From a virus, in IMG/VR virus record IMGVR_UViG_3300045988_162908: DNA of 64,000 nucleotides, one strand, 5' to 3'. This document shows, one piece after another, positions 6,185-36,106 of this stretch (position 1 is the first letter of the stretch; each line of letters starts with the position of its first letter). Position numbers and translations under genes: made by a program. The notes beneath the pieces were generated by a model. The model did not search any database and had not been told where the DNA came from. It was given only the letters and a program-made list of their open reading frames with translations.

Positions 6185-6298
6185 TCTCTTTATCTCTTCA
6201 AAATCTCTTCCTCTCTCCATGTAAGCAGCGAGCAGGCAGCGAGCAATGAGCAGGGAGGAGGGATATAAGAGCAATTTTTAATTTCATTCCCTTAAAAA

Positions 6299-15056: not shown

Positions 15057-15083
15057 TTATAGAACATTTAAATTTTGAAAATT
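15057..15083 (+). promoter_or_regulatory. class-1 upstream motif
   Basis: TTATAGAACATTTAAATTTTGAAAATT directly 5' of ATG 15084. Confidence 0.5.
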
Positions 15084-15470
15084 ATGAAAAAGAATTCAGT
15101 TATTGCAAAAGTTGCTGCGATTGCAGCATTAAACCCTTCAGGTTTCACCGTTGACGCTGCAACTTTGCAGCCTGTAACAGCCGGTTACGCGGTTGCTATG
15201 AAACAGACACAAAACAGCTTTGGACCTGAAGGTCTGGCAAAGGTTGCAAACACTATCGAGGAGCTCCAGGCCGGCGCCGCAAAGATCGGCTTAAATATAG
15301 ACGGCCGTCTGGCTTTTGGCGGCTGGTATGACTCAGAAAGCGGCCTCTATTATTATGATGCTACTTTGATTTTTCCGGAAAATTGGAAAAAAGAAGCAAT
15401 CGAGGCCGGTCGCGCAAACGAGCAAATAGCAATCTTCGACCTGTCAAACTTGGAGGAGATTCGATTGTAA
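15084..15470 (+). CDS. hypothetical protein
   Basis: ATG preceded by the class-1 motif. The ORF track starts 9 nt earlier at a TTG. 128 aa. Confidence 0.65.
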   Translation: MKKNSVIAKVAAIAALNPSGFTVDAATLQPVTAGYAVAMKQTQNSFGPEGLAKVANTIEELQAGAAKIGLNIDGRLAFGGWYDSESGLYYYDATLIFPENWKKEAIEAGRANEQIAIFDLSNLEEIRL

Positions 15471-15515
15471 TATAAGTTAACGGGGGCCGTTCCTGGCTCC
15501 CTTATTATCCCTTTA

Positions 15516-15544
15516 TTATAGAAACATTTTAAAATTTAGAAATT
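15516..15544 (+). promoter_or_regulatory. class-1 upstream motif
   Basis: TTATAGAAACATTTTAAAATTTAGAAATT directly 5' of ATG 15545. Confidence 0.5.
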
Positions 15545-15982
15545 ATGAAAAATAAAAGATATAATATCAAAACATTTGATTTTGTAGTTAACGGCGAACA
15601 TATTTATTTTACTTGTAGCACTTCAAACACACGAAACGGCTTTTGTCATCATGTTTTTGCATTCGGAGGCGGCAAAGATTATGAGCACTCCCGCGTATCA
15701 TATTATAACCGCACTTGGGAGACCTTCGAGTATGAAACGGCCCTATATCACGCTATAGAGAAGTTTTCTAAAAGTATGCGTGAACCTTTGCGCCTCGAAG
15801 TGGAGGCGCTGGCACTCGATGAACACAAAAAGGCCGAATGCTTTATAAAAGCATTCGAAGCTAATTTTGTCGCATTAAGCGACGAACAAAAGAAATTTGT
15901 GTGTGAACACACACCAGAAATCACAAACAAGGACCAGGCAAAAACCGTTAACGCGGCCGTTGCCATGATGGCGGCGCTATAA
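15545..15982 (+). CDS. hypothetical protein
   Basis: 145-aa ATG ORF after a class-1 motif. Confidence 0.65.
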   Translation: MKNKRYNIKTFDFVVNGEHIYFTCSTSNTRNGFCHHVFAFGGGKDYEHSRVSYYNRTWETFEYETALYHAIEKFSKSMREPLRLEVEALALDEHKKAECFIKAFEANFVALSDEQKKFVCEHTPEITNKDQAKTVNAAVAMMAAL

Positions 15983-15997
15983 TATATTTTAAGGATT

Positions 15998-16050
15998 CCA
16001 GGGTACAAAGGTAGCCAGGCCAACACGGCGGATCATTCCCGCCGGTACCC
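15998..16050 (+). repeat. structured intergenic repeat, partial copy (R_A)
   Basis: GGGTAC-AAAGGTAGCCAGGCC-ACGGCGGATCATTCCCGCCG-GTACCC. It is homologous to the first half of 17085-17180 and 17679-17773. Confidence 0.75.
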
Positions 16051-16055
16051 CCTAT

Positions 16056-16083
16056 TTATAGAACATTTAAAATTTTAGGAATT
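16056..16083 (+). promoter_or_regulatory. class-1 upstream motif
   Basis: TTATAGAACATTTAAAATTTTAGGAATT directly 5' of ATG 16084. Confidence 0.5.
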
Positions 16084-16395
16084 ATGAAAAAGAATTTTGA
16101 TTTTTTTGGTATCATGGCAAAGTTGAAGGCAGTAGCCGCAAAGGTAAAGTTTTTCTTTGCCGTACTCGCAAAGGTAGAAGTTTTTTATTTTTTCCCTGTA
16201 GCCCTGGCGATCGTCTTCTTTGCGGTTGTTATTGATTGCGTTTTTGCACTTGTTTCCGGCGGGTGCCCTAATGTTGCTAAAGCCGTCGAAGGTATTATTA
16301 TTTTCGGCCTTCTGTCTTTTGTTTCCGCTTTCGCGGGTATTGCCTGTATCGCTGCAGATTGGGACTATACAAAGAAAGAAGTGCTAATTAAATAA
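16084..16395 (+). CDS. hypothetical membrane protein
   Basis: 103 aa with three hydrophobic segments. A class-1 motif lies upstream. Confidence 0.6.
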   Translation: MKKNFDFFGIMAKLKAVAAKVKFFFAVLAKVEVFYFFPVALAIVFFAVVIDCVFALVSGGCPNVAKAVEGIIIFGLLSFVSAFAGIACIAADWDYTKKEVLIK

Positions 16396-16447
16396 TATGA
16401 GATAACAGCGAGAAAAGAAAGTATCAATTTTCTAAACATATAACATC

Positions 16448-16639
16448 ATGGCAAAGAAGACAATTAAACAACAGTACGACGAGTTAGCAAAATACGGTGA
16501 ATGTTTCGAGCAAGAAGGTTATGGAGGCTTTGCCCTTGTAATCGACGAAAACGGGGAACGTGCCCTATATAAGGTTTGTTATAACAATACGGAGGAACTT
16601 TGCGCGCGCTGGCAAAAAAATAAAATACACGTGCCCTAA
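16448..16639 (+). CDS. hypothetical small protein
   Basis: 63-aa ATG ORF in the array, with no class-1 motif. Confidence 0.5.
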   Translation: MAKKTIKQQYDELAKYGECFEQEGYGGFALVIDENGERALYKVCYNNTEELCARWQKNKIHVP

Positions 16640-16767
16640 AAAAGAAAATAACTGGCCCCGTCCTTATATCACAATTAAGGGAGTGCGCCACTATCTCGAC
16701 AACTTCATGCGGTGTGCATAAAAGCCCGGTACCCTGAACCTTCCAGGGTACCCACAAAATAACTATA

Positions 16768-16794
16768 TTATAGAATTTTTAAAATATTGAGAAA
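16768..16794 (+). promoter_or_regulatory. class-1 upstream motif
   Basis: TTATAGAATTTTTAAAATATTGAGAAA directly 5' of ATG 16795. It is preceded by the hairpin GGTACCCTG...CAGGGTACC at 16728-16752. Confidence 0.5.
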
Positions 16795-17055
16795 ATGAAC
16801 AATTATAATATTACATTTTCGCGCCGTTCCAGTACGGCGGCCCTGGTAAGTGTTTTATTTGCCGTGTGTGCCATTCTGTTTGCACGCCTGAATAAAAGTA
16901 CCTTTGCAGCTATAAAAAGCGCCTGGCGATGGTTATTTGCGCCTAAAACCTACTTTGCCAGCGATGGCGACGGTGTAACGGTCAACGGGCTTCAATTTAT
17001 CGGTATTAATCTAATAGCCGCGGCCGTGTGTGTATTACTGTCTATCTCCTTATAA
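16795..17055 (+). CDS. hypothetical membrane protein
   Basis: 86 aa with two hydrophobic segments. Confidence 0.6.
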   Translation: MNNYNITFSRRSSTAALVSVLFAVCAILFARLNKSTFAAIKSAWRWLFAPKTYFASDGDGVTVNGLQFIGINLIAAAVCVLLSISL

Positions 17056-17084
17056 AGATATTCTTTTTCAAACTTTAAATATCA

Positions 17085-17180
17085 GGGTGCAAAGGTATCC
17101 AGGCCAAAACGGCGGATCATTCCCGCCGGCACCTTCTAATAAGTGATAAAGCCGCTTTTATAGCGGTTGCAAAATATCAC
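17085..17180 (+). repeat. structured ~95-nt intergenic repeat (R_B)
   Basis: ~88% identical to 17679-17773. It contains nested stems GGTGC...GCACC, CGGCGG...CCGCCG, GTGATA...TATCAC and CCGC...GCGG. Confidence 0.8.
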
Positions 17181-17199
17181 AAGGAATTAATAAAATATA

Positions 17200-17227
17200 T
17201 TATAGAACATTTTAATTTTTAGGCAAT
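17200..17227 (+). promoter_or_regulatory. class-1 upstream motif
   Basis: TTATAGAACATTTTAATTTTTAGGCAAT directly 5' of ATG 17228. Confidence 0.5.
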
Positions 17228-17446
17228 ATGAAAAAGAAAATTTTCTCATTTGAAATGTACCTTATTATGAACGGTACGTGGACCCTGTTACGTAATTTTC
17301 GTTGTGATATAAACGAAAAGAGAAAACAAGTAGCATACCTTAAAAACAAGGGTTATGTTTACGACCGAAAAGAAAAAGCCTACTTTTTACGAAATGTAGG
17401 CACCGCCTATAATTGCGCCGTGTCAATTAAAAGCTATGAGATGTAA
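17228..17446 (+). CDS. hypothetical small protein
   Basis: 72-aa ATG ORF after a class-1 motif. Confidence 0.6.
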   Translation: MKKKIFSFEMYLIMNGTWTLLRNFRCDINEKRKQVAYLKNKGYVYDRKEKAYFLRNVGTAYNCAVSIKSYEM

Positions 17447-17460
17447 AATATAGTGCTATA

Positions 17461-17489
17461 TTATAGGACGTTTTTAAAAATAGAAAATT
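17461..17489 (+). promoter_or_regulatory. class-1 upstream motif
   Basis: TTATAGGACGTTTTTAAAAATAGAAAATT directly 5' of ATG 17490. Confidence 0.5.
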
Positions 17490-17678
17490 ATGAAAGCAGC
17501 ATCTTTTATTACATCAAAAAATTATAGCGGTGAAGACATTTGTCAAATATATTTGGGACGTCGAGCCGCTGAAGAAGGATACCAGAGTATCCAGGAGCTT
17601 ATTTCAGACTTACCAAACAGGACACCCAAGGGCAAAAGAAGCGGAATTGGTTTTTGGTCCTTATGTTTTAAGAAATAA
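17490..17678 (+). CDS. hypothetical small protein
   Basis: 62 aa. Preferred over the overlapping ORF 17530-17814, which runs through the R_C repeat. Confidence 0.5.
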   Translation: MKAASFITSKNYSGEDICQIYLGRRAAEEGYQSIQELISDLPNRTPKGKRSGIGFWSLCFKK

Positions 17679-17773
17679 GGTGCAAAGGTTTAAGGCCCAC
17701 ACGGCGGATCATTCCCGCCGGCACCTTCTAATAAGTGATAAAAGCCCTATTTATAGCGGCTGCAAAATATCAC
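17679..17773 (+). repeat. structured ~95-nt intergenic repeat (R_C)
   Basis: Paralog of 17085-17180. Confidence 0.8.
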
Positions 17774-17791
17774 GAAGAATTATTAAACAGA

Positions 17792-17818
17792 TTATAGAAC
17801 ATTTAAATTTTTAGAGTT
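17792..17818 (+). promoter_or_regulatory. class-1 upstream motif
   Basis: TTATAGAACATTTAAATTTTTAGAGTT directly 5' of ATG 17819. Confidence 0.5.
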
Positions 17819-18205
17819 ATGAAGACTTTTCATTTTAATTACACGGTGACTCCTTCTGTATTATACGACAAGGAGGGCAACGAAAAAAGTGCGGATTTTT
17901 GGATTGATATTAGAAATCAGCACAGCGAGATCCAGGCGGAAAACCTGAAGGAGGCGTGCCGGGCATTCAGCGAGATTCTGAGCCGTAACTGGTGCATAGA
18001 TTTGACCAAAAACGGCATAAAAACCGCTGAAGGTGTGTATAGAGACACCGACAAAGGAGTAGAACAGGTAGGTCTTGTATTCAAGGCGCGCACGGAGATT
18101 GAATTTGATTACGCTTATAAAAGACGTAATATTCGAGTATGGGCATCTATCCGTGAAGAGTTCATTCCCGATTTTGAGAAAGAAGGCTTTAAGGTATCAT
18201 TATAG
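17819..18205 (+). CDS. hypothetical protein
   Basis: 128-aa ATG ORF. Confidence 0.65.
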   Translation: MKTFHFNYTVTPSVLYDKEGNEKSADFWIDIRNQHSEIQAENLKEACRAFSEILSRNWCIDLTKNGIKTAEGVYRDTDKGVEQVGLVFKARTEIEFDYAYKRRNIRVWASIREEFIPDFEKEGFKVSL

Positions 18206-18226
18206 ACTCTTTAAAATTTTGAGGAT
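18200..18226 (+). promoter_or_regulatory. class-1 upstream motif (overlaps the upstream stop codon)
   Basis: TTATAGACTCTTTAAAATTTTGAGGAT directly 5' of ATG 18227. Confidence 0.45.
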
Positions 18227-18514
18227 ATGAAGAAATTAAAGAAATTAGCTATTTTATTGCGTGCCCTTGGCTTTAAGGTTGAAGTAAGACACGAGCCTAT
18301 CACTTTTGATGATGGCACCGTAATAGAAAATATCTTTGCCGCCGTCGATTTAGCGGGCTGTCACTGGGACATCTGGCACGAAGGTGTTACCTTTGAAATG
18401 CACTTTTATAGGAATAAGGAGTGTATTTATGATCAGGTGTACTACTCGTTTCAGCTTGGAGTTATCAAACAGATTTTTATAGACTTCGACAAGTACGAAA
18501 AATACGCCTGTTAA
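18227..18514 (+). CDS. hypothetical protein
   Basis: 95-aa ATG ORF. Confidence 0.6.
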   Translation: MKKLKKLAILLRALGFKVEVRHEPITFDDGTVIENIFAAVDLAGCHWDIWHEGVTFEMHFYRNKECIYDQVYYSFQLGVIKQIFIDFDKYEKYAC

Positions 18515-18569
18515 GGCTTCCAGGGCACTCCTGGAGTCTTTTATATAGGATGCAAAGAATATCACTATA

Positions 18570-18598
18570 TTATAGAACAATTTTAATTTTGAGGAATT
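18570..18598 (+). promoter_or_regulatory. class-1 upstream motif
   Basis: TTATAGAACAATTTTAATTTTGAGGAATT directly 5' of ATG 18599. It contains an exact TAATTTTG (TAnnTTTG). Confidence 0.5.
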
Positions 18599-19423
18599 AT
18601 GGAAGCAAAGATAGATTTTGAGAATTTGGAAAAAGAGGCCATCTGGAAAATTGAGGACCGCCTGGGTGATTTAAAAGAAGACTCCGGAGACGTTTTTCTG
18701 TGGGCAAGTAATTCTATCCCGGCTACAAAACCGGAACGTTTTAGCAGCGTGAAAAATGCAAAAGAATACGGAATTTTGAGAAATGAGTCTTACATGCGCC
18801 GTGGTATAATGAAACGAGATGAGCCAATAGACTATATTATAGGATCGGAAAAAGATTACCAAAAAACCGTGAAGTCTTGGTTCCGTCGCAAGAAAAACGA
18901 GATGGTAAGAAAGTACCGCGAACACGTCGAAAAACTCGTGGACCGCTCAAACAAAGAAATAACAGCGATGAAGGCGTTTAAAGACGTTTGCCGTACCTTC
19001 GATGGCAAAGTGATAAATAAGCGCTTTCTGGACGCTGCAAGGTATGCTACAGGCTTTTCTTGTAGCTTTTATGATGGCTGTCTTGAAATGAACGCTATCA
19101 ATTCTTACGGAGAATACGCTCCAGGTATCACGTTTTATTCTCCTTGTTGTTCTCTGACACAAAAAGCCTGGAAGTGGACGACAAACGACCGTATGGCTGC
19201 AGCAGAAGCCGTCGATCTGATAGACGGGTATATCTTGAACAAAACACGGGATATTGCTAAATACAAAGATAGCATCAAACATTATGCAAAGTACGTGGAC
19301 CAGGTACGCAAAATCGAGGCTTCTCTTCATAAGCTGGTAAAAACCGATGTAACGATCAGAGGCTGGGCACGTGAACACGACCTGGAGAAGTACCCACTGT
19401 TTGGTCACATCTGGGTATGCTAA
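18599..19423 (+). CDS. hypothetical protein
   Basis: 274-aa ATG ORF. Confidence 0.7.
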   Translation: MEAKIDFENLEKEAIWKIEDRLGDLKEDSGDVFLWASNSIPATKPERFSSVKNAKEYGILRNESYMRRGIMKRDEPIDYIIGSEKDYQKTVKSWFRRKKNEMVRKYREHVEKLVDRSNKEITAMKAFKDVCRTFDGKVINKRFLDAARYATGFSCSFYDGCLEMNAINSYGEYAPGITFYSPCCSLTQKAWKWTTNDRMAAAEAVDLIDGYILNKTRDIAKYKDSIKHYAKYVDQVRKIEASLHKLVKTDVTIRGWAREHDLEKYPLFGHIWVC

Positions 19424-19481
19424 CAAATAGCCCTGAATGCTATTCAGGGCACCCTTTATAGAATGAGTGATTTTTTACTTA

Positions 19482-19510
19482 TTATAGAACGTTTTTAATA
19501 TTGAGGAATT
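19482..19510 (+). promoter_or_regulatory. class-1 upstream motif
   Basis: TTATAGAACGTTTTTAATATTGAGGAATT directly 5' of ATG 19511. It is preceded by the hairpin GCCCTGAAT...ATTCAGGGC at 19430-19450. Confidence 0.5.
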
Positions 19511-20222
19511 ATGAAAGACAATAAATTGTATGTAGATATTTTGAGCCGACAGGCAAATAAGGATGGCAGACCATACGAAATGGCACTGAGCGATTTCTGT
19601 GACTTCCTTCTGGATTTATTCAGCGTCGAGGCATTCAAGGGCAAAGATGTTGACAGCCTGCAAAACTGGTTTAGTGAGCGTATCAGCAAGAAGCCTGACT
19701 TCGGGCTACTGGCTACAAACTGGCTGGTAGATGTAAGCGTGGCACTTCAGAATGGTACCTGGCTTGATGTGTTTGGCATTCTTTATGAGAACATGTACCT
19801 ATTACCTGGCAAGGCCTCCAAGACAGGGCAATTTTTCACGCCTCCTGCCATTTCCGACCTAATAAGTGATATTATAGGCTCGAAGAAAAAAACAGGCTTC
19901 CAGCCCTAATATTTCAGGCAAAACGGTAAATGATTGCGCCGCTGGTAGCGGTCGCCTTCTTCTGTCACACTTTGCTAAAATGAGCAGCCCTGATCCTTCA
20001 GTAGGTAGAACATATAAGTATGTTGCCCAGGATTCAGATCCGCTGGCATGTAAGATGTGCGCCCTGAACATGATGGCGCACGGTATGAATGGCGTGGTAA
20101 TCTGCCAGGATACCTTGGCAATGAGTACACCATCGGCGGTGTATTACGTCAACGAAGTGAAATATCCATTTAATACGCCTTATTATAGCGTGCGTGTAGT
20201 ATCAGGGGATCCAGCAAAATAG
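19511..20222 (+). pseudogene. frameshifted, C-terminally short N6-adenine DNA methyltransferase-like gene
   Basis: ORF 19511-19909 ends ...KTGQFFTPPAISDLISDIIGSKKKTGFQP*. The +1 frame, open from 19878, continues ...ISGKTVNDCAAGSGRLLL...ALNMMAHGMNGVVICQDTL. These are HsdM-like motifs (GQFFTP, xDxAxGSG). The switch point coincides with an A7 run at 19886-19892. Confidence 0.6.
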
Positions 20223-20251
20223 GATTCCCTGGCAATAAAGAAAATAACATA

Positions 20252-20269
20252 TTATAGAACAGATAGAAA
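20252..20269 (+). promoter_or_regulatory. class-1 upstream motif (short form)
   Basis: TTATAGAACAGATAGAAA directly 5' of ATG 20270. Confidence 0.4.
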
Positions 20270-20626
20270 ATGAAGAAATCATCAGTTATATATAATTTCG
20301 CTATCTCGCAGCATCAGGGTAAAATCCTGCTGACTGCCCAGGAATACCCCTGGAGTGTGCTCCAGGTAATCACTTTCGAGCCACAATTTTTCGACAAGGT
20401 GGTGGCGCTTTGCAAGCGCCGCGGTATGGTAGCTACCCACGACAAGGATCGCTCCTTCTGCATCATCCATCTTGGCAGTGGAGATCAGAACGGCAAATAT
20501 CCAGATAGGCATATCAATACCGATACGCCGGCAGCTATCGACAAGTATCTGGAGGCATTGAAAGATGCGATGGCGCAAGCAGTGGTTTGGTATTTTACGA
20601 ATATTATAGAACGTGTGAAAAATTAG
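20270..20626 (+). CDS. hypothetical protein
   Basis: 118-aa ATG ORF. Its 3' end contains the next class-1 motif. Confidence 0.6.
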   Translation: MKKSSVIYNFAISQHQGKILLTAQEYPWSVLQVITFEPQFFDKVVALCKRRGMVATHDKDRSFCIIHLGSGDQNGKYPDRHINTDTPAAIDKYLEALKDAMAQAVVWYFTNIIERVKN

Positions 20627-20631
20627 AAATT
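20604..20631 (+). promoter_or_regulatory. class-1 upstream motif
   Basis: TTATAGAACGTGTGAAAAATTAGAAATT directly 5' of ATG 20632. Confidence 0.5.
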
Positions 20632-20892
20632 ATGATAGAATATTTGTTAGATATATATACGATCCGCAGATATACAAATGGGAAGGTAACATGTGAGAAA
20701 ATCTCGAAAGTACTTAAAGAAAGTACGGTAAAACTTGCAAAACGAGCTTGCAAAAACGTTGGTTATAAGTACATCGGACGTTACAAGGATACATACGGTA
20801 ACTATTATGCCAAGTATGAACGCAAGGATGAAAAGTTATCTAATTCCGAATGTGAAGTTTACTTCAGGCAGATATTCACAAAATTAAAGTAA
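20632..20892 (+). CDS. hypothetical protein
   Basis: ATG at 20632 (MIEYLLDIY...) chosen because the class-1 motif abuts it. The ORF track starts at 20587. Confidence 0.6.
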   Translation: MIEYLLDIYTIRRYTNGKVTCEKISKVLKESTVKLAKRACKNVGYKYIGRYKDTYGNYYAKYERKDEKLSNSECEVYFRQIFTKLK

Positions 20893-20922
20893 TATAGAAT
20901 CAATAAAAAATTAGAAAATCGT
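20893..20922 (+). promoter_or_regulatory. class-1 upstream motif (degenerate)
   Basis: TATAGAATCAATAAAAAATTAGAAAATCGT directly 5' of ATG 20923. Confidence 0.4.
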
Positions 20923-22104: not shown

Positions 22105-22446
22105 CCCACCATCCCATACAGGGGAAGTCTGAAAGCCTTCCCCTACCCCGTCCGGCAGACCGGCAAGCGTGGAGCGACACCACGGCGAGGTGCATTATTT
22201 CTTTGAAATAACTTTGAAATTTTAAATGTTTTTTGCGGAAGCGTCCGCACTTGTTTTCACGCTGTCTGCGGTCCGTGAGGATAGCAGCGGCATTTTTTCC
22301 CATCGCTGCCACGGCTGGCACCATCTATTGAAGATGTGAGGATCGACACCTCAGAGCGAACAATGACTGACAAATAAGGTATAGAGTGCTGAAAACGTGA
22401 TAAAACGTTAAAAATACATCTAAAATAGTATTTTATGTGTATTTTA

Positions 22447-22478
22447 TTTGGTAGTTTCAGAAATTATCCGTACCTTTG
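22447..22478 (+). promoter_or_regulatory. Bacteroidota promoter TTTG-N20-TACCTTTG
   Basis: TTTG at 22447 and TACCTTTG at 22471, 24 nt start-to-start, ~80 nt upstream of the first class-2 gene. Confidence 0.65.
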
Positions 22479-22525
22479 CATCAGATAAAACAAGAAGATA
22501 ATATATAATACTAATAATCATTTTT

Positions 22526-22554
22526 AGCCCTAAGCGCATCACGGTTAAGCGCAA
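22526..22554 (+). promoter_or_regulatory. class-2 upstream stem-loop motif
   Basis: AGCCCTAAGCGCATCACGGTTAAGCGCAA, ending 5 nt before ATG 22560. Stem GCGC/GCGC. Confidence 0.6.
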
Positions 22555-22559
22555 GTAAT

Positions 22560-22925
22560 ATGAAAACAATTTCCTTTAATTTAAATTTTGTAGAAATCCA
22601 ATCCTTGCTTACATCTATTATCAATATAGATAAGTTAATGGGTGTGCATGATTGTTCAGATCAAGACTATCCACGAACACCGCAGGAGGTAAAGATTGCG
22701 GTTGCCATCGAATTGAAGGCGATGGGCGTGTTAGCCTACGACCTCGACAATATCACCGACAAGACCCGCGATACCTTGGAGAATCGAGGATATACGGGAG
22801 AGTGGCAGGACGAGTACGAATCCTTCTGGCTGAAGGGTCAATATGTATGGGTGCGAGTAAGAATGCTCTACAAAACGGACGGAACGCCTGTTATAGCTTT
22901 GGAGGCAAAAGCCAATAATCAATAA
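22560..22925 (+). CDS. hypothetical protein
   Basis: 121-aa ATG ORF after a class-2 motif. Confidence 0.65.
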   Translation: MKTISFNLNFVEIQSLLTSIINIDKLMGVHDCSDQDYPRTPQEVKIAVAIELKAMGVLAYDLDNITDKTRDTLENRGYTGEWQDEYESFWLKGQYVWVRVRMLYKTDGTPVIALEAKANNQ

Positions 22926-22939
22926 TACATTTATAATTT

Positions 22940-22968
22940 AGCCCTAAGCGCATCACGGTTAAGCGCAA
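22940..22968 (+). promoter_or_regulatory. class-2 upstream stem-loop motif
   Basis: Identical 29-mer AGCCCTAAGCGCATCACGGTTAAGCGCAA before ATG 22974. Confidence 0.6.
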
Positions 22969-22973
22969 ACAAT

Positions 22974-23681
22974 ATGGGAACATATAGAAGAGTATTTATT
23001 CCTTCCAAATTTTCATCTGTTGAGAATGCTAACAAAAAGCATAAGAGTAGAGTTTCAGCGTGCAGAAAGAACGGTGTAGTAAACGTTTGTGTCTTCGATG
23101 GTACCGCATCACTCCTGGGTAAGCTGAAGGCTTTCGTCGAAGAAAAGAAGGTAGATTATCATACCTTCGGTGATAACTACAACGGCTACGGCTACCAGGA
23201 TCACTATCACGATTATTACCTGAATACAAAGGACGGAAAAGCATTCATCGAAATGCTTGACGGGAAAAAGAAGGTCGTAAAGAAGGCGAAAACCTGGGAG
23301 GACGTTCGCGACGCATGGGCTCGCTCGCTGGTTAGAAAATCAGAGAATGCAGTTACCTTCGAAGAGGCGCAGCAGATGGCAGAGGAAAAGGTAGATTATA
23401 AGAACGACAGAATATCTGCGATGATCTCGCGCCAGTCTGAGCGAGGCGACAGCGTAAAGCGCGGCAAGCTCATTGCAAAGATGGAGCGTGAAAATCCTTT
23501 CCGTCCTATCCGAGATTACGACCACGCCCTGGCTATCATTGCAGCAAGCAAACGTCACAATAATACGGCCTACGATAGTCTCCTGAACGAGGCGCACGAT
23601 ATGGAGCGCTATGGCGATATTGAGCCAGGAACCGCAAAAGAGTGGGCACGTGAACAGATAAAGAGAACTAAGCAGTTATAA
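22974..23681 (+). CDS. hypothetical protein
   Basis: 235-aa ATG ORF. Confidence 0.7.
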   Translation: MGTYRRVFIPSKFSSVENANKKHKSRVSACRKNGVVNVCVFDGTASLLGKLKAFVEEKKVDYHTFGDNYNGYGYQDHYHDYYLNTKDGKAFIEMLDGKKKVVKKAKTWEDVRDAWARSLVRKSENAVTFEEAQQMAEEKVDYKNDRISAMISRQSERGDSVKRGKLIAKMERENPFRPIRDYDHALAIIAASKRHNNTAYDSLLNEAHDMERYGDIEPGTAKEWAREQIKRTKQL

Positions 23682-23690
23682 TTATTACTA

Positions 23691-23719
23691 AGCCCTAAGC
23701 GCATCACGGTTAAGCGCAA
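23691..23719 (+). promoter_or_regulatory. class-2 upstream stem-loop motif
   Basis: Identical 29-mer before ATG 23725. Confidence 0.6.
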
Positions 23720-23724
23720 ATAAT

Positions 23725-24315
23725 ATGAAGAAGTTTTTTGTATATTTCGACAAGAAAGTTATTATTGACTCAGCAGAAAAAGCCGAGGAGTTTATTAACA
23801 GCCTGACTGACAAGAACGAGCCTGACGGCAGAAAGTTGGAGGTTAACGACAACGTTCATTCCCTTCTGAAGAAGATTTATCAGGACGAACAGGCGGGCAG
23901 AAAATTGCAGACTACAGGCTGTAGCCCATCATCCTTCATCTATTGCTATCCTGCCCTTGCTGATACTCCAGAGGAGTGCGAGAAGGCTATCATAGCAAAA
24001 GAGGCAGCAGACCGCAAGCACAAGCAGGATGAGGAGATCCAGGAGAAGCAGCGTATCGCCCGTGAAATCAACGAGCGCCGCAAGGAACTGGCTGCGATGC
24101 CGAAAGGTTTCTTTACCGTCTGTCTTTGTGCAACCGTCAATTTTTCATATAAATATTATGAGTACGTAGGCTATGCCGAGAATGGCGAGGAGGCATATAA
24201 AATGGCAGTAGCGAAGCTACAGAAAGATTTCGGTACCCACCTCTGGGATTACGATAACATCCTGGATGCAGAAATCATTCCTCGCCTTCTTGGTGATGAA
24301 GTTTATTCGTTATAG
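23725..24315 (+). CDS. hypothetical protein
   Basis: 196-aa ATG ORF. Confidence 0.7.
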   Translation: MKKFFVYFDKKVIIDSAEKAEEFINSLTDKNEPDGRKLEVNDNVHSLLKKIYQDEQAGRKLQTTGCSPSSFIYCYPALADTPEECEKAIIAKEAADRKHKQDEEIQEKQRIAREINERRKELAAMPKGFFTVCLCATVNFSYKYYEYVGYAENGEEAYKMAVAKLQKDFGTHLWDYDNILDAEIIPRLLGDEVYSL

Positions 24316-24351
24316 CATCGGATTTTTATTACTGGTTTATAGATTATTTTC

Positions 24352-24378
24352 AGCCCTACGCATCACGGTCAAGCGGAA
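24352..24378 (+). promoter_or_regulatory. class-2 upstream stem-loop motif (variant)
   Basis: AGCCCTACGCATCACGGTCAAGCGGAA before ATG 24384. Stem CGC/GCG. Confidence 0.55.
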
Positions 24379-24383
24379 CTAAT

Positions 24384-24980
24384 ATGGAAAGAAACGACAT
24401 AGTAGTATTGGAGAATCTTCAGCAAGAAGATGATCAACCAAGATACCTTGTAGTATTAGCTAAGGAAATAGAAAATTATGCCGCAGACGGAAGCAGCTAC
24501 GATTATTCCTTAGAGAACGGCGAGAGTGAGTGTGAGCATGATATGATGAAGGCTATAGAGAAGAAGTTCGGAATTAACACTGCCGAGCTGTCTCTATGTG
24601 GAGAAGACAACGAACTTGAAGCTTGTATCGCTTCTGAAATTAGCGATGAGTTGCTTGCCGAGATAAACACTTTCGCTAAAAAATGGCGAGAGGAAAATGA
24701 ATGGTTTGATAATCCGCTCTATTGGAACTATTTTGATGGCTCAAACTGGAAGTCAGAGCTGTTACATAGTGAAGTAGAAGGTGTGAATGACAACCGTCAG
24801 TATGATTTGCTCGATAGCAATGGCGAGACCGCAAAGGACGTTATTGCGGCATACGACAGAGCCGAGGACGTTCCAAGACAATGGGAAAACGGATATTCTA
24901 CCTTCATTGATGAAGAAACCGGGTATGAGGTTAGATTCTCTCAATGGTACGGACACGCAAGTATGGCAGACGTTTATTAA
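24384..24980 (+). CDS. hypothetical acidic protein
   Basis: 198-aa ATG ORF. Confidence 0.7.
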   Translation: MERNDIVVLENLQQEDDQPRYLVVLAKEIENYAADGSSYDYSLENGESECEHDMMKAIEKKFGINTAELSLCGEDNELEACIASEISDELLAEINTFAKKWREENEWFDNPLYWNYFDGSNWKSELLHSEVEGVNDNRQYDLLDSNGETAKDVIAAYDRAEDVPRQWENGYSTFIDEETGYEVRFSQWYGHASMADVY

Positions 24981-24993
24981 AATCATTATTATC

Positions 24994-25018
24994 AGCCCTC
25001 GACATCACGGTTAAGTCA
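24994..25018 (+). promoter_or_regulatory. class-2 upstream stem-loop motif (variant)
   Basis: AGCCCTCGACATCACGGTTAAGTCA before ATG 25025. Stem GAC/GTC (compensatory). Confidence 0.55.
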
Positions 25019-25024
25019 ATAGGT

Positions 25025-25612
25025 ATGGAGGTTTTTAATCTTGTTATAGAAGGGCAAAATAACCTTAAATGTTTATTAAGCGTAAAATTGCCCGTTGATG
25101 ATCCTAAATATTCAAAGTTTGGGAAAGACTTTTTTGATGATGAGTTTATAAATGATGAAGTCTTTAAATATTTCGATCGTTATTTTATGTATCTTTCAGA
25201 TGAGTTTACTGCCTGGTATCAGCAAAACGAAGAAGAAGCATGGTTTGACTTACGCTTAGGCGATGATGGCAAAATGTATGCGGTAGCAGGCGACTCAGAA
25301 GGTATTAAGTTCTTAAATGAGGTAATCTATATAACATTAGATTATCTCGATCATGAGATAAACTTTATGGGTAGCGAGAAAGATAGTAGTTATTGGTTTA
25401 GTTTTTGGATTGACCCAGATGGTGGCATCCTAAAAGCTGCTGACCATTGTCGTTCTTTTGACTTTTATGACGACTTAAATGATGATGACGCATATTATCC
25501 GATGACAGAATATAGCTTCAAGGCAGCTCTCGATGATTTGATTGCACATAGCGACGACTATCAGAATCCTATCGAGGAGGAGGACGAAGAAGAGGAGGAA
25601 GAGGAAGAATAA
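25025..25612 (+). CDS. hypothetical protein with a poly-Glu tail
   Basis: ATG at 25025 (MEVFNLVIEG...) abuts a class-2 motif. The ORF track starts at 24944 inside the previous gene. The protein ends EEEDEEEEEEEE. Confidence 0.65.
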   Translation: MEVFNLVIEGQNNLKCLLSVKLPVDDPKYSKFGKDFFDDEFINDEVFKYFDRYFMYLSDEFTAWYQQNEEEAWFDLRLGDDGKMYAVAGDSEGIKFLNEVIYITLDYLDHEINFMGSEKDSSYWFSFWIDPDGGILKAADHCRSFDFYDDLNDDDAYYPMTEYSFKAALDDLIAHSDDYQNPIEEEDEEEEEEEE

Positions 25613-25616
25613 AAAA

Positions 25617-25735
25617 GCCCCGACCTAAGCCGGGGCACTGCGAGCCTTCTGGCTCGAATCTACTATAGTAGAAATTTGGCTCTTTAAGAGCGTTTGAATC
25701 CACAGACTTTTGAAAGTCTGACCGTCAACGGAAGT
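25617..25735. other. cluster of 5-6 consecutive hairpins (terminators and/or small RNA)
   Basis: GCCCCG..CGGGGC (with A6 on the 5' side, which is T6 on the minus strand), CGAGCC-ttct-GGCTCG, TACTATAGTA, GCTCTT-AAGAGC, CAGACTTT-AAAGTCTG, and CCGT-ca-ACGG plus a T-run. Confidence 0.6.
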
Positions 25736-25859
25736 TTTATTTTTCTTTCTATTCCATAAAGGTACGATTAAAAATCTTCCGAAGACGGTGCAAATTTAAG
25801 AAATAAAACAATACGGTGTATCAATTTACACGAATTATTAATATTAATTAAGATATTTC

Positions 25860-25886
25860 AGCCCTACCGCAGCACGGCGAAGCGGA
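25860..25886 (+). promoter_or_regulatory. class-2 upstream stem-loop motif (variant)
   Basis: AGCCCTACCGCAGCACGGCGAAGCGGA before ATG 25891. Stem CCGC/GCGG (compensatory). Confidence 0.55.
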
Positions 25887-25890
25887 TTTT

Positions 25891-26364
25891 ATGGAGGATA
25901 TGAAAAATCAGGCATCATCAACCGCCACGAAAGATAGTATCAGCATCGCTCCCCGTGATGTGCTCCAGTGTTACGGCCTATTGGAGGCTCACCTGGATAA
26001 TTTGAAGCCTGGCGAGTATTCCGTCTGCATCAATTACAAGAAAAAGGGTGTTGTAGAGCTGCGCAGGAACCCACGTCCTGCTGATCACCTGAACGTATTG
26101 GAGAAGGTAACGAAGGAGGAGAAGAATACCAAGGCAGCCCTGCATCGTTTTGCTGTCGAGGTTCGTAAGGCGTACCAGTCTGGTATCACCATCATCGGCA
26201 AGACTCATGCCCTGAAAAGTTTCGGAAAACGTATCGTAGATGCAGCGCTATGTATTAAGGAAGCCAACAACCAGTATTATTCCTGCGCTGCTCCTCGTCA
26301 GTACTACGATAAGAATGCGCTGGTATATATGAAGCTGGAGCAGATAGAGAATGAAGATAAATAA
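25891..26364 (+). CDS. hypothetical protein
   Basis: 157-aa ATG ORF. Confidence 0.7.
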   Translation: MEDMKNQASSTATKDSISIAPRDVLQCYGLLEAHLDNLKPGEYSVCINYKKKGVVELRRNPRPADHLNVLEKVTKEEKNTKAALHRFAVEVRKAYQSGITIIGKTHALKSFGKRIVDAALCIKEANNQYYSCAAPRQYYDKNALVYMKLEQIENEDK

Positions 26365-29025: not shown

Positions 29026-29080
29026 GTAAAGGTAAAAAGGTAAAAGAGTAAAAAGGTAAAAAGAGCATTCTTGCTTTTAC
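29026..29080. repeat. GTAAAAAG-type dispersed repeat (forward arm)
   Basis: GTAAAGGTAAAAAGGTAAAAGAGTAAAAAGGTAAAAAGAGCATTCTTGCTTTTACC immediately after the stop at 29025. Confidence 0.85.
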
Positions 29081-30585: not shown

Positions 30586-30993
30586 ATGGCAAGACAAGCA
30601 TCGAATAATTTGAATAAGTTTAAAGGACTGGAAGACTCTCCAGCCATCCAAGGTATAGAAAGAATTTATGAGGCTAACGAGGAAGCTCACCAAAAGCGAG
30701 TTGCCGAAGCTTTGGAACAACAGCAGAACGGACAGGGTACCGCAGAGACGGACACTATGTCACAGACTGATGCACCTTCGCACTCTCCGGTCCCTCCTGT
30801 ATCATCTGCCCCTATTTCTACTCCCGAACCTGCTCCAGCGAAAAAAACTGGCAAGAAGACTCAGAACGGCATCACTATCTATGTGCCGATGAACTACTAC
30901 ATGCAGATATTACAGATGAAGATGGAGACGGGTGTTCCTATTAAGGATATTGCCCTGCAAGCTGTCATCGAGTACCTGAATAGACATAAATAA
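30586..30993 (+). CDS. partition adaptor / centromere-binding protein candidate with a C-terminal ribbon-helix-helix (ParG-like)
   Basis: 135 aa. Disordered P/S/T-rich middle. The C-terminus GITIYVPMNYYMQILQMKMETGVPIKDIALQAVIEYLNRH has a beta-alpha-alpha RHH pattern. It lies immediately after parA. Confidence 0.55.
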   Translation: MARQASNNLNKFKGLEDSPAIQGIERIYEANEEAHQKRVAEALEQQQNGQGTAETDTMSQTDAPSHSPVPPVSSAPISTPEPAPAKKTGKKTQNGITIYVPMNYYMQILQMKMETGVPIKDIALQAVIEYLNRHK

Positions 30994-31028
30994 AGGTAAA
31001 AGGGCAAAAGAGTAAAAAGGCTTTTGCT
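30991..31028. repeat. GTAAAAAG-type dispersed repeat (short forward arm)
   Basis: TAAAGGTAAAAGGGCAAAAGAGTAAAAAGGCTTTTGCT, overlapping the stop codon. Confidence 0.75.
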
Positions 31029-31050
31029 GGTAAATGAAAAGTCAGATTTC
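31029..31050 (+). repeat. outlying iteron copy (direct)
   Basis: GGTAAATGAAAAGTCAGATTTC. Confidence 0.8.
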
Positions 31051-31176: not shown

Positions 31177-31275
31177 AAAAAATGAAAACTTTAAATAGAA
31201 AATTATAAGATTATAGATATTATATATATTAGGAAAATCTTAATAGTTTGGTTTTCAGACACTTACAAAGTTACT

Positions 31276-31407
31276 GGTAAACGAAAAGTCAGATTGTGGT
31301 AAACGAAAAGTCAGATTGTGGTAAATGAAAAGTCAGATTGTGGTAAACGAAAAGTCAGATTGTGGTAAACGAAAAGTCAGATTGTGGTAAACGAAAAGTC
31401 AGATTTG
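31276..31407 (+). repeat. six tandem 22-bp iterons (origin of plasmid-type replication)
   Basis: GGTAAACGAAAAGTCAGATTGT x6, head-to-tail. One copy has AAATG and the last ends TTTG. The array abuts the rep start codon. Confidence 0.9.
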
Positions 31408-31409
31408 AT

Positions 31410-32702
31410 ATGATTGATGATAATGAAAACAAGGGTTTAGCCTGGATAAATACTCCTTTTTCACTCACGAAACTGGATAGACAATACTCTCTTTTTCAGC
31501 AAAATGTGTTGATGATAACAAGCACGCACCTACAGAAGTTTGTAGATGAGTACTTTTTAGAGAAAAGGCAGTTGGGCGATGCTCGTTCTGATTTTCTTTT
31601 TGAGCAAGGCGTGGACCATGCTGTGATGAATATCCCGCCTATTAAGATAGACATCCATGATTTCATTACTTGCGAGAATATGAGCTATCAGAAGTTGAGA
31701 TCGGAGCTAAAGACAAGCATTCTCGATATGACGGTGAAGAGTACGCTGCCCGATGGTAGCGATGAGTTTGCTCATATATTCAGCCGCATGAGTATTCCGT
31801 CATCGAAGAACGGATATACGACTAAGGACGGAAAGAAGGTGAACCGCATATTGGGATATATCACGCTTGAGATTGATCCGAAACTTTCTAAGCGGGTGTT
31901 TGATATGGGACAGGGGTATATTCACCATATATCTATGATAGCTAAGTTTGCTAAGAATGTGAATACCCCTCGTGTCTATATCTATCTTTTGCGACAGATA
32001 GGATTGAGCAGGAGTATGGATATAGCCGTACCCTTCCTGGAGCTGAAATCTTATCTTGGTTTAGTGGAACTTGATTGTAATAAGAAAGAAATCTTAAAGA
32101 ATGAATCTGGAGAGCCTGTTATGAACAAATATCCTAAATTTTCTCAGTTTAGAAAGCAAGTTCTTGATGTGGTATGCAGAGATTTGCAGAGAATGGAAAA
32201 GCTATCCCAGACAGATATTGTGTTTGACGAATTGAAAGATGAGGATATTATCTATAAATCGGGTAAACGGAAAGGTGATCCGGACTTCATCAGATTTCGC
32301 GTGAAGCGCACAGTAGTAGGTGAGAATCATTTATCTAAGGATAAAAATACCGATATTGCCGCTACTCTGAATGAGCGATACAAGCAGAACAGCGTACAGA
32401 AGACCGGGAAACTGGTAGAGGGTGATATATTCGCCCATGTGCATCAGCCTACGGAAAGCAAGATTATAACCGAGAGCGGACAGGGTACCGACAAGTGGAA
32501 GGCTTTCTGTAAGCTCATTATAGGCGACGCTGAAAAATCACTGGTTTCCCGCATTTCCTTTGTCGGTATGAAGAACGACAGGTTCTGCGTGGAGTGCAGC
32601 GATGAGGACTTTGATATGCTTCGAAAGTTGGGCATCGAGGAAAAAGCTAAGGAGTTCTTTGACTGCAAAGGTTCTTTTGCACCAGTATTCTACCGAGGGT
32701 AG
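31410..32702 (+). CDS. iteron-type replication initiator (Rep_3/RepA-like)
   Basis: ATG at 31410 (MIDDNENKGLAWINTPFSLTKLDRQYSLFQQNVLMITS...) preferred over the GTG at 31362, which lies inside the iterons. The N-terminal pattern resembles Rep_3 initiators. Context is iterons upstream and parAB upstream of those. Confidence 0.7.
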   Translation: MIDDNENKGLAWINTPFSLTKLDRQYSLFQQNVLMITSTHLQKFVDEYFLEKRQLGDARSDFLFEQGVDHAVMNIPPIKIDIHDFITCENMSYQKLRSELKTSILDMTVKSTLPDGSDEFAHIFSRMSIPSSKNGYTTKDGKKVNRILGYITLEIDPKLSKRVFDMGQGYIHHISMIAKFAKNVNTPRVYIYLLRQIGLSRSMDIAVPFLELKSYLGLVELDCNKKEILKNESGEPVMNKYPKFSQFRKQVLDVVCRDLQRMEKLSQTDIVFDELKDEDIIYKSGKRKGDPDFIRFRVKRTVVGENHLSKDKNTDIAATLNERYKQNSVQKTGKLVEGDIFAHVHQPTESKIITESGQGTDKWKAFCKLIIGDAEKSLVSRISFVGMKNDRFCVECSDEDFDMLRKLGIEEKAKEFFDCKGSFAPVFYRG

Positions 32703-32706
32703 TCCT

Positions 32707-32879
32707 AAAGGTAAAAAAGTAAAAAGGTAAAAAGGTAAAAAGAGCCTGGCGGGATATTGCTGTTCTTTTTACCTTTTGCCTTTTATAGCAAGAATATTCT
32801 TTTTACTCTTTTACCTTTTTACTCTTATCAGCAAGAATGTTCTTTTTACCTTTTTACTCTTTTACCTTTTTACCTTTAA
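32707..32879. repeat. GTAAAAAG-type dispersed repeat complex (forward arm plus three inverted arms)
   Basis: The forward arm is AAAGGTAAAAAAGTAAAAAGGTAAAAAGGTAAAAAGAGC. The inverted arms include TTCTTTTTACCTTTTGCC, AGCAAGAATATTCTTTTTACTCTTTTACCTTTTTACTC and AGCAAGAATGTTCTTTTTACCTTTTTACTCTTTTACCTTTTTACCTTT. Confidence 0.9.
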
Positions 32880-32913
32880 AATTCTTTGTCCTTCCCATTT
32901 ATTTCTTTCTTTG

Positions 32914-35468: not shown

Positions 35469-35978
35469 ATGACAAAGGAAATTATAGAAAAAGTTACGCA
35501 GCAGAACAATTCGTTAGACGTTAACGACCTAAATGCTGAAGAGAAGAAGAATTTAGCTGAGTTTTTATCGGCTAAGGGCTTCACTGACTCTACTTTTTAC
35601 CTTCGATTCTTTCAGAAAGGTTTCGATGCTTGGGAAATTCTGGGTATTAATAACTGTAAAAGTCAGTTTTTAGGTATGCCTGATATAGGTAAGGTATTAC
35701 TTGAGTACGTAGAGCGTGATGCCTTGGGTAACGAGATAGGCGATAAGGGTTATCTCTATACTCTTGCCCAGAGTGATAAGCCGGGTGTATTTTATGCCTG
35801 TTTGAAGCAGGCAGCAAACGGCTTATGTATGAAACTCTACTCCTTCATGGAGGAACGAGGTATGAGTCGTACCACCATCATCAAGCGTTTCTCGTCTGAT
35901 GACTGGAAAGAGTGGGAAAAGGTAGGCATCAAAGCCTTGCTGGAAGAGTTCTTAAAAGGTAAAAAAGTAAAAGAGTAA
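35469..35978 (+). CDS. hypothetical protein
   Basis: ATG at 35469 (MTKEIIEKVTQQ...), 27 nt after the -7 box. The C-terminus ...KGKKVKE is encoded by the start of a GTAAAAAG repeat. Confidence 0.65.
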   Translation: MTKEIIEKVTQQNNSLDVNDLNAEEKKNLAEFLSAKGFTDSTFYLRFFQKGFDAWEILGINNCKSQFLGMPDIGKVLLEYVERDALGNEIGDKGYLYTLAQSDKPGVFYACLKQAANGLCMKLYSFMEERGMSRTTIIKRFSSDDWKEWEKVGIKALLEEFLKGKKVKE

Positions 35979-36094
35979 AAAGGTAAAAAGCAGTCTTACT
36001 GAAAAAGGTAAAAACCTCGCATGAATCCAGGGAACAAGGAAAAGAAGCAGGAATGCTCTTTTTACCTTTTTACCTTTTTACTTTTTTACTTTTC
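35955..36094. repeat. GTAAAAAG-type dispersed repeat complex (forward and inverted arms)
   Basis: AAAGGTAAAAAAGTAAAAGAGTAAAAAGGTAAAAAG ... GAATGCTCTTTTTACCTTTTTACCTTTTTACTTTTTTACTTTTC. Confidence 0.9.
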
Positions 36095-36106
36095 AAAGAT
36101 GAAACG

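Follow-up and report, generated by a model that had tools for sequence, protein, structure and literature searches.

The promoters of bacteriophage N4 are DNA hairpins with a stem of 5 to 7 bp and a 3-nt loop, formed on the template strand and served by a giant, virion-packaged single-subunit RNA polymerase. The attC sites of integrons are imperfect palindromes of 57 to 141 bp with R''/L''-L'/R' boxes, placed 3' of the cassette open reading frame (ORF) in a system that includes the IntI integrase, attI, and Pc. The lambda nut site (boxA plus boxB), which acts as RNA, combines a linear conserved box with a short downstream hairpin whose loop is conserved. The PeSL (promoter-early stem-loop) of T4-type phages, a sigma70-type promoter plus a terminator hairpin, is a mobile regulatory cassette (Arbiol et al. 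2010, PMC2839356). The operators of the MS2 and PP7 coat proteins and of T4 RegA and gene 32 are small hairpins of the initiation region with a covarying stem, whose loop and flanking strand are read base-specifically, and in T4 one regulator controls many early mRNAs (PMC3014915). We describe here a short element, an AGCCCU box followed by a hairpin, that stands before each of six genes in a phage sequence of 64,000 nt (IMG/VR virus record IMGVR_UViG_3300045988_162908; this whole stretch is referred to below as the window) and recurs in other mobile elements. With modest confidence, we interpret it as a cis-acting RNA signal in the translation initiation region of the accessory ("early" or moron-type) genes of Prevotellaceae mobile elements.

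The element consists of AGCCCU, 1 or 2 nt, a stem of 3 or 4 bp that encloses an 11-nt loop (A-N-CACGG-N-N-AA), and, after the 3' arm, an A/U-rich linker of 6 to 8 nt that leads to the AUG. The AGCCCU box is followed by one unpaired nucleotide, A or C, or by two in the three identical copies of the window. Three identical 29-mers and three variants before six ATGs had been reported in the original prediction, and both exact and looser pattern scans find them. The 29-mer AGCCCTAAGCGCATCACGGTTAAGCGCAA occurs exactly three times, at 22526, 22940, and 23691 on the plus strand (0 expected from 100 shuffles), and AGCCCT-N2-8-CACGG has six sites, all on the plus strand (22526, 22940, 23691, 24352, 24994, and 25860), against an expectation of 0.06; AGCCCT by itself is not enriched in the window (29 sites versus 24 expected). 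Copy 1 (22526..22552, plus strand; AGCCCT-AA-GCGC-ATCACGGTTAA-GCGC) precedes the ATG at 22560. Copies 2 (22940..22966) and 3 (23691..23717), identical to it and also on the plus strand, start 14 nt past the stop codon of gene 1 and 9 nt past that of gene 2 and precede the ATGs at 22974 and 23725, respectively. Copy 4 (24352..24375; AGCCCT-A-CGC-ATCACGGTCAA-GCG; ATG at 24384), copy 5 (24994..25017; AGCCCT-C-GAC-ATCACGGTTAA-GTC; ATG at 25025), and copy 6 (25860..25885; AGCCCT-A-CCGC-AGCACGGCGAA-GCGG; ATG at 25891), again on the plus strand, complete the set. There are thus four distinct stems, GCGC/GCGC (three times), CGC/GCG, GAC/GTC, and CCGC/GCGG, and three loop sequences, ATCACGGTTAA, ATCACGGTCAA, and AGCACGGCGAA; in every case the ATG lies 9 to 11 nt 3' of the loop and opens an ORF of 121 to 235 aa. 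A covariance model built from 140 copies and run on the window with filters off, a search that had been proposed at the outset, retrieved the six known copies only (33 to 50 bits; 35.0, 32.9, 36.9, 49.9, 45.8, and 34.5 bits for copies 1 to 6), the next match scoring 12 bits. Descent of the repeats from paralogous genes was rejected, as the six proteins form separate clusters.

Compensatory changes in the stem, noted originally from the versions in the window, were examined in a set of 251 unique copies from 217 loci, drawn from IMG/VR phage contigs, Prevotellaceae genomes, a Microviridae genome, and a conjugative-element-like region. To keep the set unbiased, copies were picked for GCCCU, the loop, an A/T-rich upstream sequence, and an ATG at +8 to +11, with the stem ignored. 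All three Watson-Crick pairs beside the loop are kept in 240 of the 251 copies, compared with a mean of 75 and a maximum of 95 when 3' arms were shuffled. Eleven fully paired 3-bp stems are found (CGC/GCG, GAC/GUC, GGC/GCC, GCU/AGC, GCC/GGC, AGC/GCU, UGC/GCA, CUC/GAG, AAC/GUU, ACC/GGU, and CAC/GUG), with double changes at all three stem positions, and RNAalifold predicts the same 3-bp helix. The compensatory pattern is therefore upheld, and the pair counts together with RNAalifold strongly support selection on a hairpin, with conservation of both its loop and the AGCCCT on its 5' side. The covariation score of the 140-row alignment A2 is 0.517, versus 0.186 in shuffles and at most 0.105 for partners slid by 1 to 3 columns, but this score is not independent of the stem because the rows of A2 were preselected for three pairs. 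Of the 251 copies, 169 have a stem of 3 bp, 68 one of 4 bp, and 4 one of 5 bp, and the loop is always 11 nt long. Pairing hardly ever extends to the nucleotide after AGCCCU, which stands opposite A, G, or C, so that the length of the stem is capped. Since about three quarters of the copies have one of two dominant stems, the independent compensatory events number about ten rather than hundreds, still ample for a 3-bp helix. A rare indel-type variant was seen at two loci (L018, position 432, and L103, position 2787, both on the plus strand), where the arms GCC and G(U)GC pair only with the U bulged out.

The primary sequence is constrained as well. A relaxed scan of the loci, with two mismatches allowed in AGCCCT and two in CACGG, returned 209 perfect copies versus 7 variants and none in shuffled sequence. 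The first loop position is A in 251 of 251 copies and the nucleotide before GCCCU is A in 250, although neither was imposed by the pattern; AGCCCU, loop A1, CACGG, and the terminal AA are essentially invariant. We infer that AGCCCU and the loop are recognized base-specifically. A pseudoknot between AGCC and loop GGUU, suggested by one fold, was rejected, as changes at the variable loop positions have no counterpart in the invariant AGCC, and so was pairing of N2 with N9 inside the loop, which shows no covariation either. In isolation, the hairpin folds no better than shuffled sequence (z about 0). A hairpin so weak and yet so well conserved would be formed, stabilized, or read in complex with a partner.

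The position of the element relative to the start codon is nearly fixed. The AUG follows the loop by 9 to 11 nt in 246 of 251 copies, and the linker from the stem to the AUG measures 6 to 8 nt in 229 of 242, is 81% A/U, and contains a Shine-Dalgarno (SD)-like triplet in only 10 of 242. The orientation of the element is always that of the gene. Bacteroidia ribosomes initiate without SD pairing, normally in A/U-rich regions free of structure (PMC3155529, PMC7797042, PMC6847099); bS21, bS18, and bS6 sequester the anti-SD in these ribosomes (PMC3155529, PMC7797042, PMC6847099, PMC13000453). Against this background, a conserved G+C-rich hairpin at -8 to -30 is an exception that calls for a specific function. 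The SD sequence itself is a functional analogue only: here too a signal ends 6 to 8 nt upstream of the AUG of each cistron, in genes devoid of SD-like purine tracts. However, the element is structured, is not complementary to the 3' tail of 16S rRNA, and is confined to mobile elements in a phylum that ignores the SD (PMC7797042). It is like the phage translational operators in being an initiation-region hairpin with a covarying stem and a conserved loop. It differs from them in that its carriers share no protein and the AUG lies outside the hairpin at a fixed distance, and we regard it as a candidate operator only.

The element is not phage-specific. A scan of IMG/VR with a 14-base degenerate pattern gave at least 120 loci, as did a stricter pattern; among the matches listed for the degenerate pattern, about half are obvious true copies, with an A/T-rich upstream sequence and an ATG 9 to 11 nt after the loop, and several contigs have 2 to 4 copies. 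The carriers are contigs of 30 to 130 kb from many samples. A scan of 185,579 species genomes gave 111 loci. The 80 of these that were listed comprise 52 in Prevotellaceae, about ten in other Bacteroidales, and the rest in metagenome bins of unrelated phyla, which are most simply explained as mis-binned phage contigs; all isolate genomes among the matches listed belong to Bacteroidales, mostly to Prevotellaceae. Carriers in this family include Segatella copri, S. buccae, S. baroniae, Hoylesella, Leyella, Hallella, Alloprevotella, and Prevotella spp.; loci L133 and L152 come from S. copri HDE04. In GenBank phages, a 48-nt query matched the scaffold of a human-gut phage and a Microviridae genome from pig. 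This 4.5-kb microvirus encodes a capsid protein, a 329-aa protein (pilot), a peptidase M15, and Rep, and the element stands before a 72-aa ORF, 23 nt downstream of a TACCTTTG box. A 49-aa ORF follows the element in Segatella buccae ATCC 33574, with an identical arrangement in several other Prevotellaceae; this ORF adjoins genes for SSB, a polyvalent-protein domain (LPD11), and a transposase, a region that looks like a conjugative or mobilizable element. Further copies are found in prophage-like regions beside integrases. The element is thus common to many unrelated mobile elements of Prevotellaceae from the gut, the rumen, and the mouth.

Host promoters are placed as expected for a transcribed element. 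A strict Bacteroidetes -7 box (TAnnTTTG) occurs within 150 nt upstream of 55 of the 152 first or isolated copies (36%), mostly 12 to 70 nt away, versus 3 of 51 internal copies (6%) and a background of 0.09 per 150 nt. For internal copies, the median distance from the preceding stop codon to the start of the element is 9.5 nt, too little to accommodate a promoter of their own. In the window, the pattern TTTG-N17-23-TAnnTTTG identifies a candidate Bacteroidetes primary-sigma promoter at 22447..22478 on the plus strand (TTTG-N20-TACCTTTG), a consensus match only, 48 nt upstream of copy 1. The stretch is conserved in three related loci (L034, L073, and L188) and is the predicted promoter of the five-gene array. 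Altogether, the plus strand of the window has five such matches (TTTG-N19-21-TAnnTTTG; 12757, 14637, 22447, 29466, and 35411), which probably mark units transcribed by the host RNA polymerase. Because host boxes precede first but not internal copies, the gaps are tight, and the array promoter lies upstream, the element is most likely transcribed and, judging from its position, acts as RNA in the translation initiation region. Among described transcribed elements, the lambda nut site has a comparable layout. However, nut occurs once per early operon, is not tied to a start codon, and acts on transcription elongation.

These data bear on whether the element could instead be a promoter at the DNA level, an extruded hairpin read by a specialized RNA polymerase or sigma factor, so that each gene would be its own unit. 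The presence of a conserved element with a covarying stem before every gene is what such a promoter would predict, and the hairpin promoters of N4 provide the precedent (PMC4496689). They too lie upstream of early phage genes and combine a covarying stem with conserved nucleotides. The geometry is nevertheless unlike that of N4, and a stem of 3 or 4 bp with an 11-nt loop is too weak to extrude. The large ORFs of the window (64 kb of phage) showed no polymerase domain, the 1229-aa ORF being primase-like, and no polymerase gene is present in the 4.5-kb microvirus genome or in 8 kb of the conjugative-element-like region. In addition, starts inside the element would yield leaders of only about 10 to 20 nt in every case, and the host boxes, as noted, lie upstream of first copies and not of internal ones. 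We therefore consider a DNA-level promoter highly improbable.

One observation on the side of a DNA-level promoter is that another per-gene motif of the window, which ends in AGGAATT, does look promoter-like. This second signal precedes at least 11 small genes between 15 and 21 kb and consists of ATATTATAGAAC, about 13 nt, (T/G)AGGAATT, and the ATG, which can also be written as TATTATAGAAC...AGGAATT-ATG; it often comes right after a G+C-rich terminator-like hairpin. Its sites lie at 15058-20905 on the plus strand (e.g., 15058, 16057, 16769, 17201, 17462, 17793, 18571, 19483, 20253, 20605, and 20893). It contains an SD-like AGGA, unusual for Bacteroidota, and is probably a promoter plus ribosome-binding site specific to this lineage. 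The signal is found in close relatives only (L073 and L188) and looks quite unlike the family-wide AGCCCU hairpin.

A further possibility is that an endoribonuclease specific for both structure and sequence, encoded by the host or by the element and similar to Cas6/Csy4 or T4 RegB, cuts at or beside the hairpin, frees the cistrons, and creates defined 5' or 3' ends on which mRNA stability would depend. The tight operons, with one copy per cistron 7 to 10 nt after the previous stop codon, are in line with this idea, and a short hairpin with an invariant loop and an invariant single-stranded 5' box is typical of nuclease sites. On the other hand, isolated monocistronic copies 12 to 50 nt below a promoter box are common, including the one in the microvirus, and have no cistron to free; processing alone would not explain the strict distance of 6 to 8 nt to the AUG; and no nuclease gene co-occurs with the element in the neighborhood survey described below. 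An RNA-processing site thus appears quite unlikely, although it is the strongest of the rival explanations. Of the three functions offered in the original prediction, the translational operator fits best, by virtue of the fixed stem-to-AUG distance, the lack of SD-like sequence, the copies within operons, and the host promoters upstream of first copies. RNA processing keeps a small probability, and a hairpin promoter for a phage polymerase is disfavored by the missing polymerase genes and the geometry.

The element coincides with the junctions of gene-module exchange between phages. L034, a relative whose ParA is 94% identical, is homologous to the window as far as 22521, which is five bases short of copy 1. 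The homology starts again at 25607 and stops at 25886, at the 3' edge of copy 6; the genes between and after these segments differ. The segment common to the window and L099 is exactly 24352-25027, from copy 4 through copy 5, at 88% identity. Around 170 copies, the ends of high-scoring segment pairs of at least 100 nt fall at -30 to -1 from the loop start in 49 cases and at +10 to +39 in 34. In this respect the element recalls the PeSLs, stem-loops that likewise precede many small, non-essential, unrelated ORFs of a plastic genome region and whose copies recombine and so serve as seams of module shuffling (PMC2839356). However, PeSLs act on transcription in one phage lineage, whereas the present element is common to unrelated element types across a bacterial family, is fixed 6 to 8 nt from the AUG, and has an invariant 11-nt loop. 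It has neither a PeSL-type promoter, as there is no -33/-7 box inside the element, nor a PeSL-type terminator, as the stem of 3 or 4 bp lacks a U-tract and folds no more stably than shuffled sequence. Copies with mixed arms were seen at L160 (559, plus strand) and L206 (2902, minus strand), where 5' GAC is combined with 3' GCG or GCC. Such copies with mismatched arms, two or three in all, look like the products of a crossover inside the loop.

The clustering of breakpoints at the element, its association with at least 108 unrelated ORF families, the chimeric arms of some copies, and a tyrosine integrase within 5 kb at 35 of 156 loci would all suit a DNA recombination site, that is, an attC-like cassette system that moves units of "element plus ORF", with conservation imposed by the recombinase. 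Yet these integrases are ordinary phage or integrative and conjugative element (ICE) types (Arm-DNA-bind_5 and Phage_int_SAM_5), mostly convergent with the array, and most loci, the window included, have no integrase. Such a site would also need no fixed distance to an AUG and no consistent location 5' of the ORF in the sense orientation, and short-homology recombination at any conserved 30-mer gives the same breakpoints. Identity with integron attC was rejected: at 24 to 27 nt the element has only a fraction of the length of attC, R and L boxes are absent, the element lies 5' of the ORF, and the integrases are of phage or ICE type and found at 35 of 156 loci. A dedicated recombination site is, in our view, very unlikely, and because the element fills most of the intergenic gap, promotion of recombination beyond the effect of shared sequence is not demonstrated by the breakpoints.

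The genes downstream of the element are diverse. They encode 184 unique proteins in at least 108 unrelated clusters, with a median length of 96 aa and mostly without a Pfam family; the products include an ArdC anti-restriction protein, a helix-turn-helix (HTH) protein, many very acidic proteins, predicted lipoproteins, and membrane proteins. Many of the products are acidic, a property known from DNA-mimic anti-restriction proteins. At temperate-looking loci, the element genes adjoin a tyrosine integrase, mostly in convergent orientation, which is the usual moron position. The genes that carry the element are probably accessory, early or anti-defense. In the window, all on the plus strand, gene 1 (22560..22925; 121 aa), gene 3 (23725..24315; 196 aa), and gene 6 (25891..26364; 157 aa, with a homologue in L157) have no family match, and gene 2 (22974..23681; 235 aa, basic) has no significant one. 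Gene 4 (24384..24980) encodes an acidic 198-aa protein whose homologues in L099, L124, and L073 are likewise preceded by the element, and gene 5 (25025..25612) encodes a very acidic 195-aa protein with a poly-Glu C terminus and homologues in L073 and L188.

The search for a trans-acting partner covered the protein families around the element at 156 loci and base pairing with 16S rRNA. The neighborhood survey found no universal neighboring gene that could encode a trans-factor, the largest family being the integrase at 35 of 156 loci. An invariant sequence on different mobile elements that share no neighbor family suggests a host component or an equally conserved reader, and the partner is perhaps host-encoded. 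In 56 Prevotella-type 16S genes recovered for the pairing test, the only place with complements of both GCCCU and UCACGG is the variable tip of helix 44; they occur together there in about 34 of the 56 sequences, far from the mRNA path. The loop segment ACGGUUA has its complement, UAGCCGU, in the 5' strand of helix 45, which is itself paired, and same-sense likenesses are at chance level (ACACGGUC near position 336 and CACGGUAAA near 810). The invariant U, A, GG, and A of the element overlay U8, A14, G18G19, and A21 of a long tRNA D-arm (U8-N9-stem-A14...G18G19...A21). Mimicry of a D-arm was rejected as a likeness of pattern only, with no tRNA call, no Rfam tRNA match at E values up to 10, and no sequence shared with the tRNAs of the loci (0 of 57).

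According to the proposed mechanism, the host RNA polymerase would transcribe the element in a 5' untranslated region or between the cistrons of an operon, and one conserved trans-acting partner would read the single-stranded AGCCCU and the 11-nt loop base-specifically, with the short stem of 3 or 4 bp holding the loop out for reading. This partner would probably be host-encoded, either the 30S subunit itself or an RNA-binding protein. Since the stem ends 6 to 8 nt before the AUG, the partner would bind where an SD helix would otherwise sit, and its binding would set how, or whether, the SD-blind ribosome of Bacteroidota starts at this AUG. The element could serve as an operator for a repressor or activator or as a direct ribosome-docking element, and both a positive and a negative effect are conceivable. 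As a side effect, its roughly 30 conserved bases would provide crossover points through which units of "element plus gene" are swapped among phages, prophages, and conjugative elements. It would thus work like a translational operator or an SD surrogate and behave like a mobile regulatory cassette. In a more specific form of the proposal, which we put forward tentatively and hold to be unlikely as it stands, the hairpin would be a structured SD substitute that docks on the 30S platform 6 to 8 nt upstream of the P-site codon, an internal ribosome entry site (IRES)-like device of bacteria, evolved by mobile elements whose host ribosomes lock the anti-SD away and passed horizontally between unrelated phages, prophages, microviruses, and conjugative elements.

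Several points weigh against interpreting the element as a cis-acting signal of translation initiation. A host ribosome that read the element as an enhancer should encounter it before host genes as well, but host genes do not use it, and the few copies per genome all lie in mobile-looking regions. No candidate partner was identified among the neighbor families of the 156 loci or by 16S pairing, and pairing with 16S rRNA is unsupported, the sites at the helix 44 tip and in helix 45 being implausible. Action as RNA is deduced from position alone. Wobble pairs do not discriminate between RNA and DNA, with 2 T.G versus 3 A.C or C.A among the core pairs; this asymmetry was discarded as a test because non-Watson-Crick pairs are too few. 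Many copies may descend from few ancestors, with about ten independent compensatory events among them, and the one copy in the microvirus could have arrived recently as a passenger without function. Finally, breakpoints at gene boundaries are usual in phage mosaics, so that their clustering is no proof that the element promotes recombination.

The motif had been flagged at the outset as one not known to have been described, and the database searches agree. Rfam 15 gave no match anywhere in the window at the gathering score, and at E values up to 10 it gave four unrelated chance matches in 22300-26000, none of them on the plus strand at a copy. A full-text search for the sequence across 8 million papers returned only chance primer matches, and the paper on the crAss-like phage phi14:2 describes early transcripts without a common upstream motif. 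The element appears to be an undescribed cis-regulatory RNA class that is new to Rfam.

The window itself is phage-like, with genes nearly all on the plus strand that include those for a reverse transcriptase of the type found in diversity-generating retroelements (DGRs), ParA, a sliding clamp, a primase-like protein, and virion proteins. No tRNA or tmRNA was called in the window, and a near-identity search with a 6-kb region found no close relative among GenBank phages. The intergenic region between gene 5 and copy 6 (25613..25859, plus strand) is conserved and hairpin-rich (GCCCCG/CGGGGC, GAGCC/GGCTC, CAGACTTT/AAAGTCTG, and others) and is 75 to 92% identical in L034, L157, L133, L073, and L188 despite different flanking genes. 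The stretch probably combines a terminator with a second promoter or regulatory region and could also encode a small RNA.

Several repeats lie elsewhere in the window. The DGR spans 3383-8079, with the reverse transcriptase at 6913-8079 (PHROG 1423, E = 3e-76) and a pair of repeats, 84 to 90% identical, at 6082-6179 and 6772-6866; the former, at the 3' end of a gene for a 933-aa virion protein, is likely the variable repeat, and the latter likely the template repeat. Four tandem 21-nt repeats (TTTCGGTACGGATATTGCCGT) at 12115-12219 lie where the ORFs 12053-12640 (minus strand) and 12101-12571 (plus strand) overlap. Six tandem 22-nt repeats (TGGTAAACGAAAAGTCAGATTG) at 31253-31427, at the start of a 446-aa ORF downstream of parA, are iteron-like and may mark an origin or partition site. 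Clusters of an 8-nt periodic repeat (GGTAAAAA / AGTAAAAA) follow several genes around the parA/replication region in both orientations (29027-29074, 30983-31030, 32698-32753, and 35946-35993; inverted at 32787-32881 and 36038-36105) and may be parS-like or other protein-binding arrays.

The element is a candidate for a new class of cis-regulatory RNA in Rfam and, after the PeSLs of T4, a second example of a regulatory repeat that doubles as a shuffling seam, here across kinds of mobile elements. It marks accessory, probably early or anti-defense, genes in Prevotella viromes and could serve as a portable expression part in Prevotella and Segatella, whose genetics are poorly tractable. If the hairpin did substitute for the SD, early and anti-defense genes would gain privileged, host-independent start-site selection at every cistron. 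For the SD-ignoring Bacteroidota, a signal used only by mobile elements, many of them unrelated, would offer an experimental handle on how cistrons are selected and tuned.

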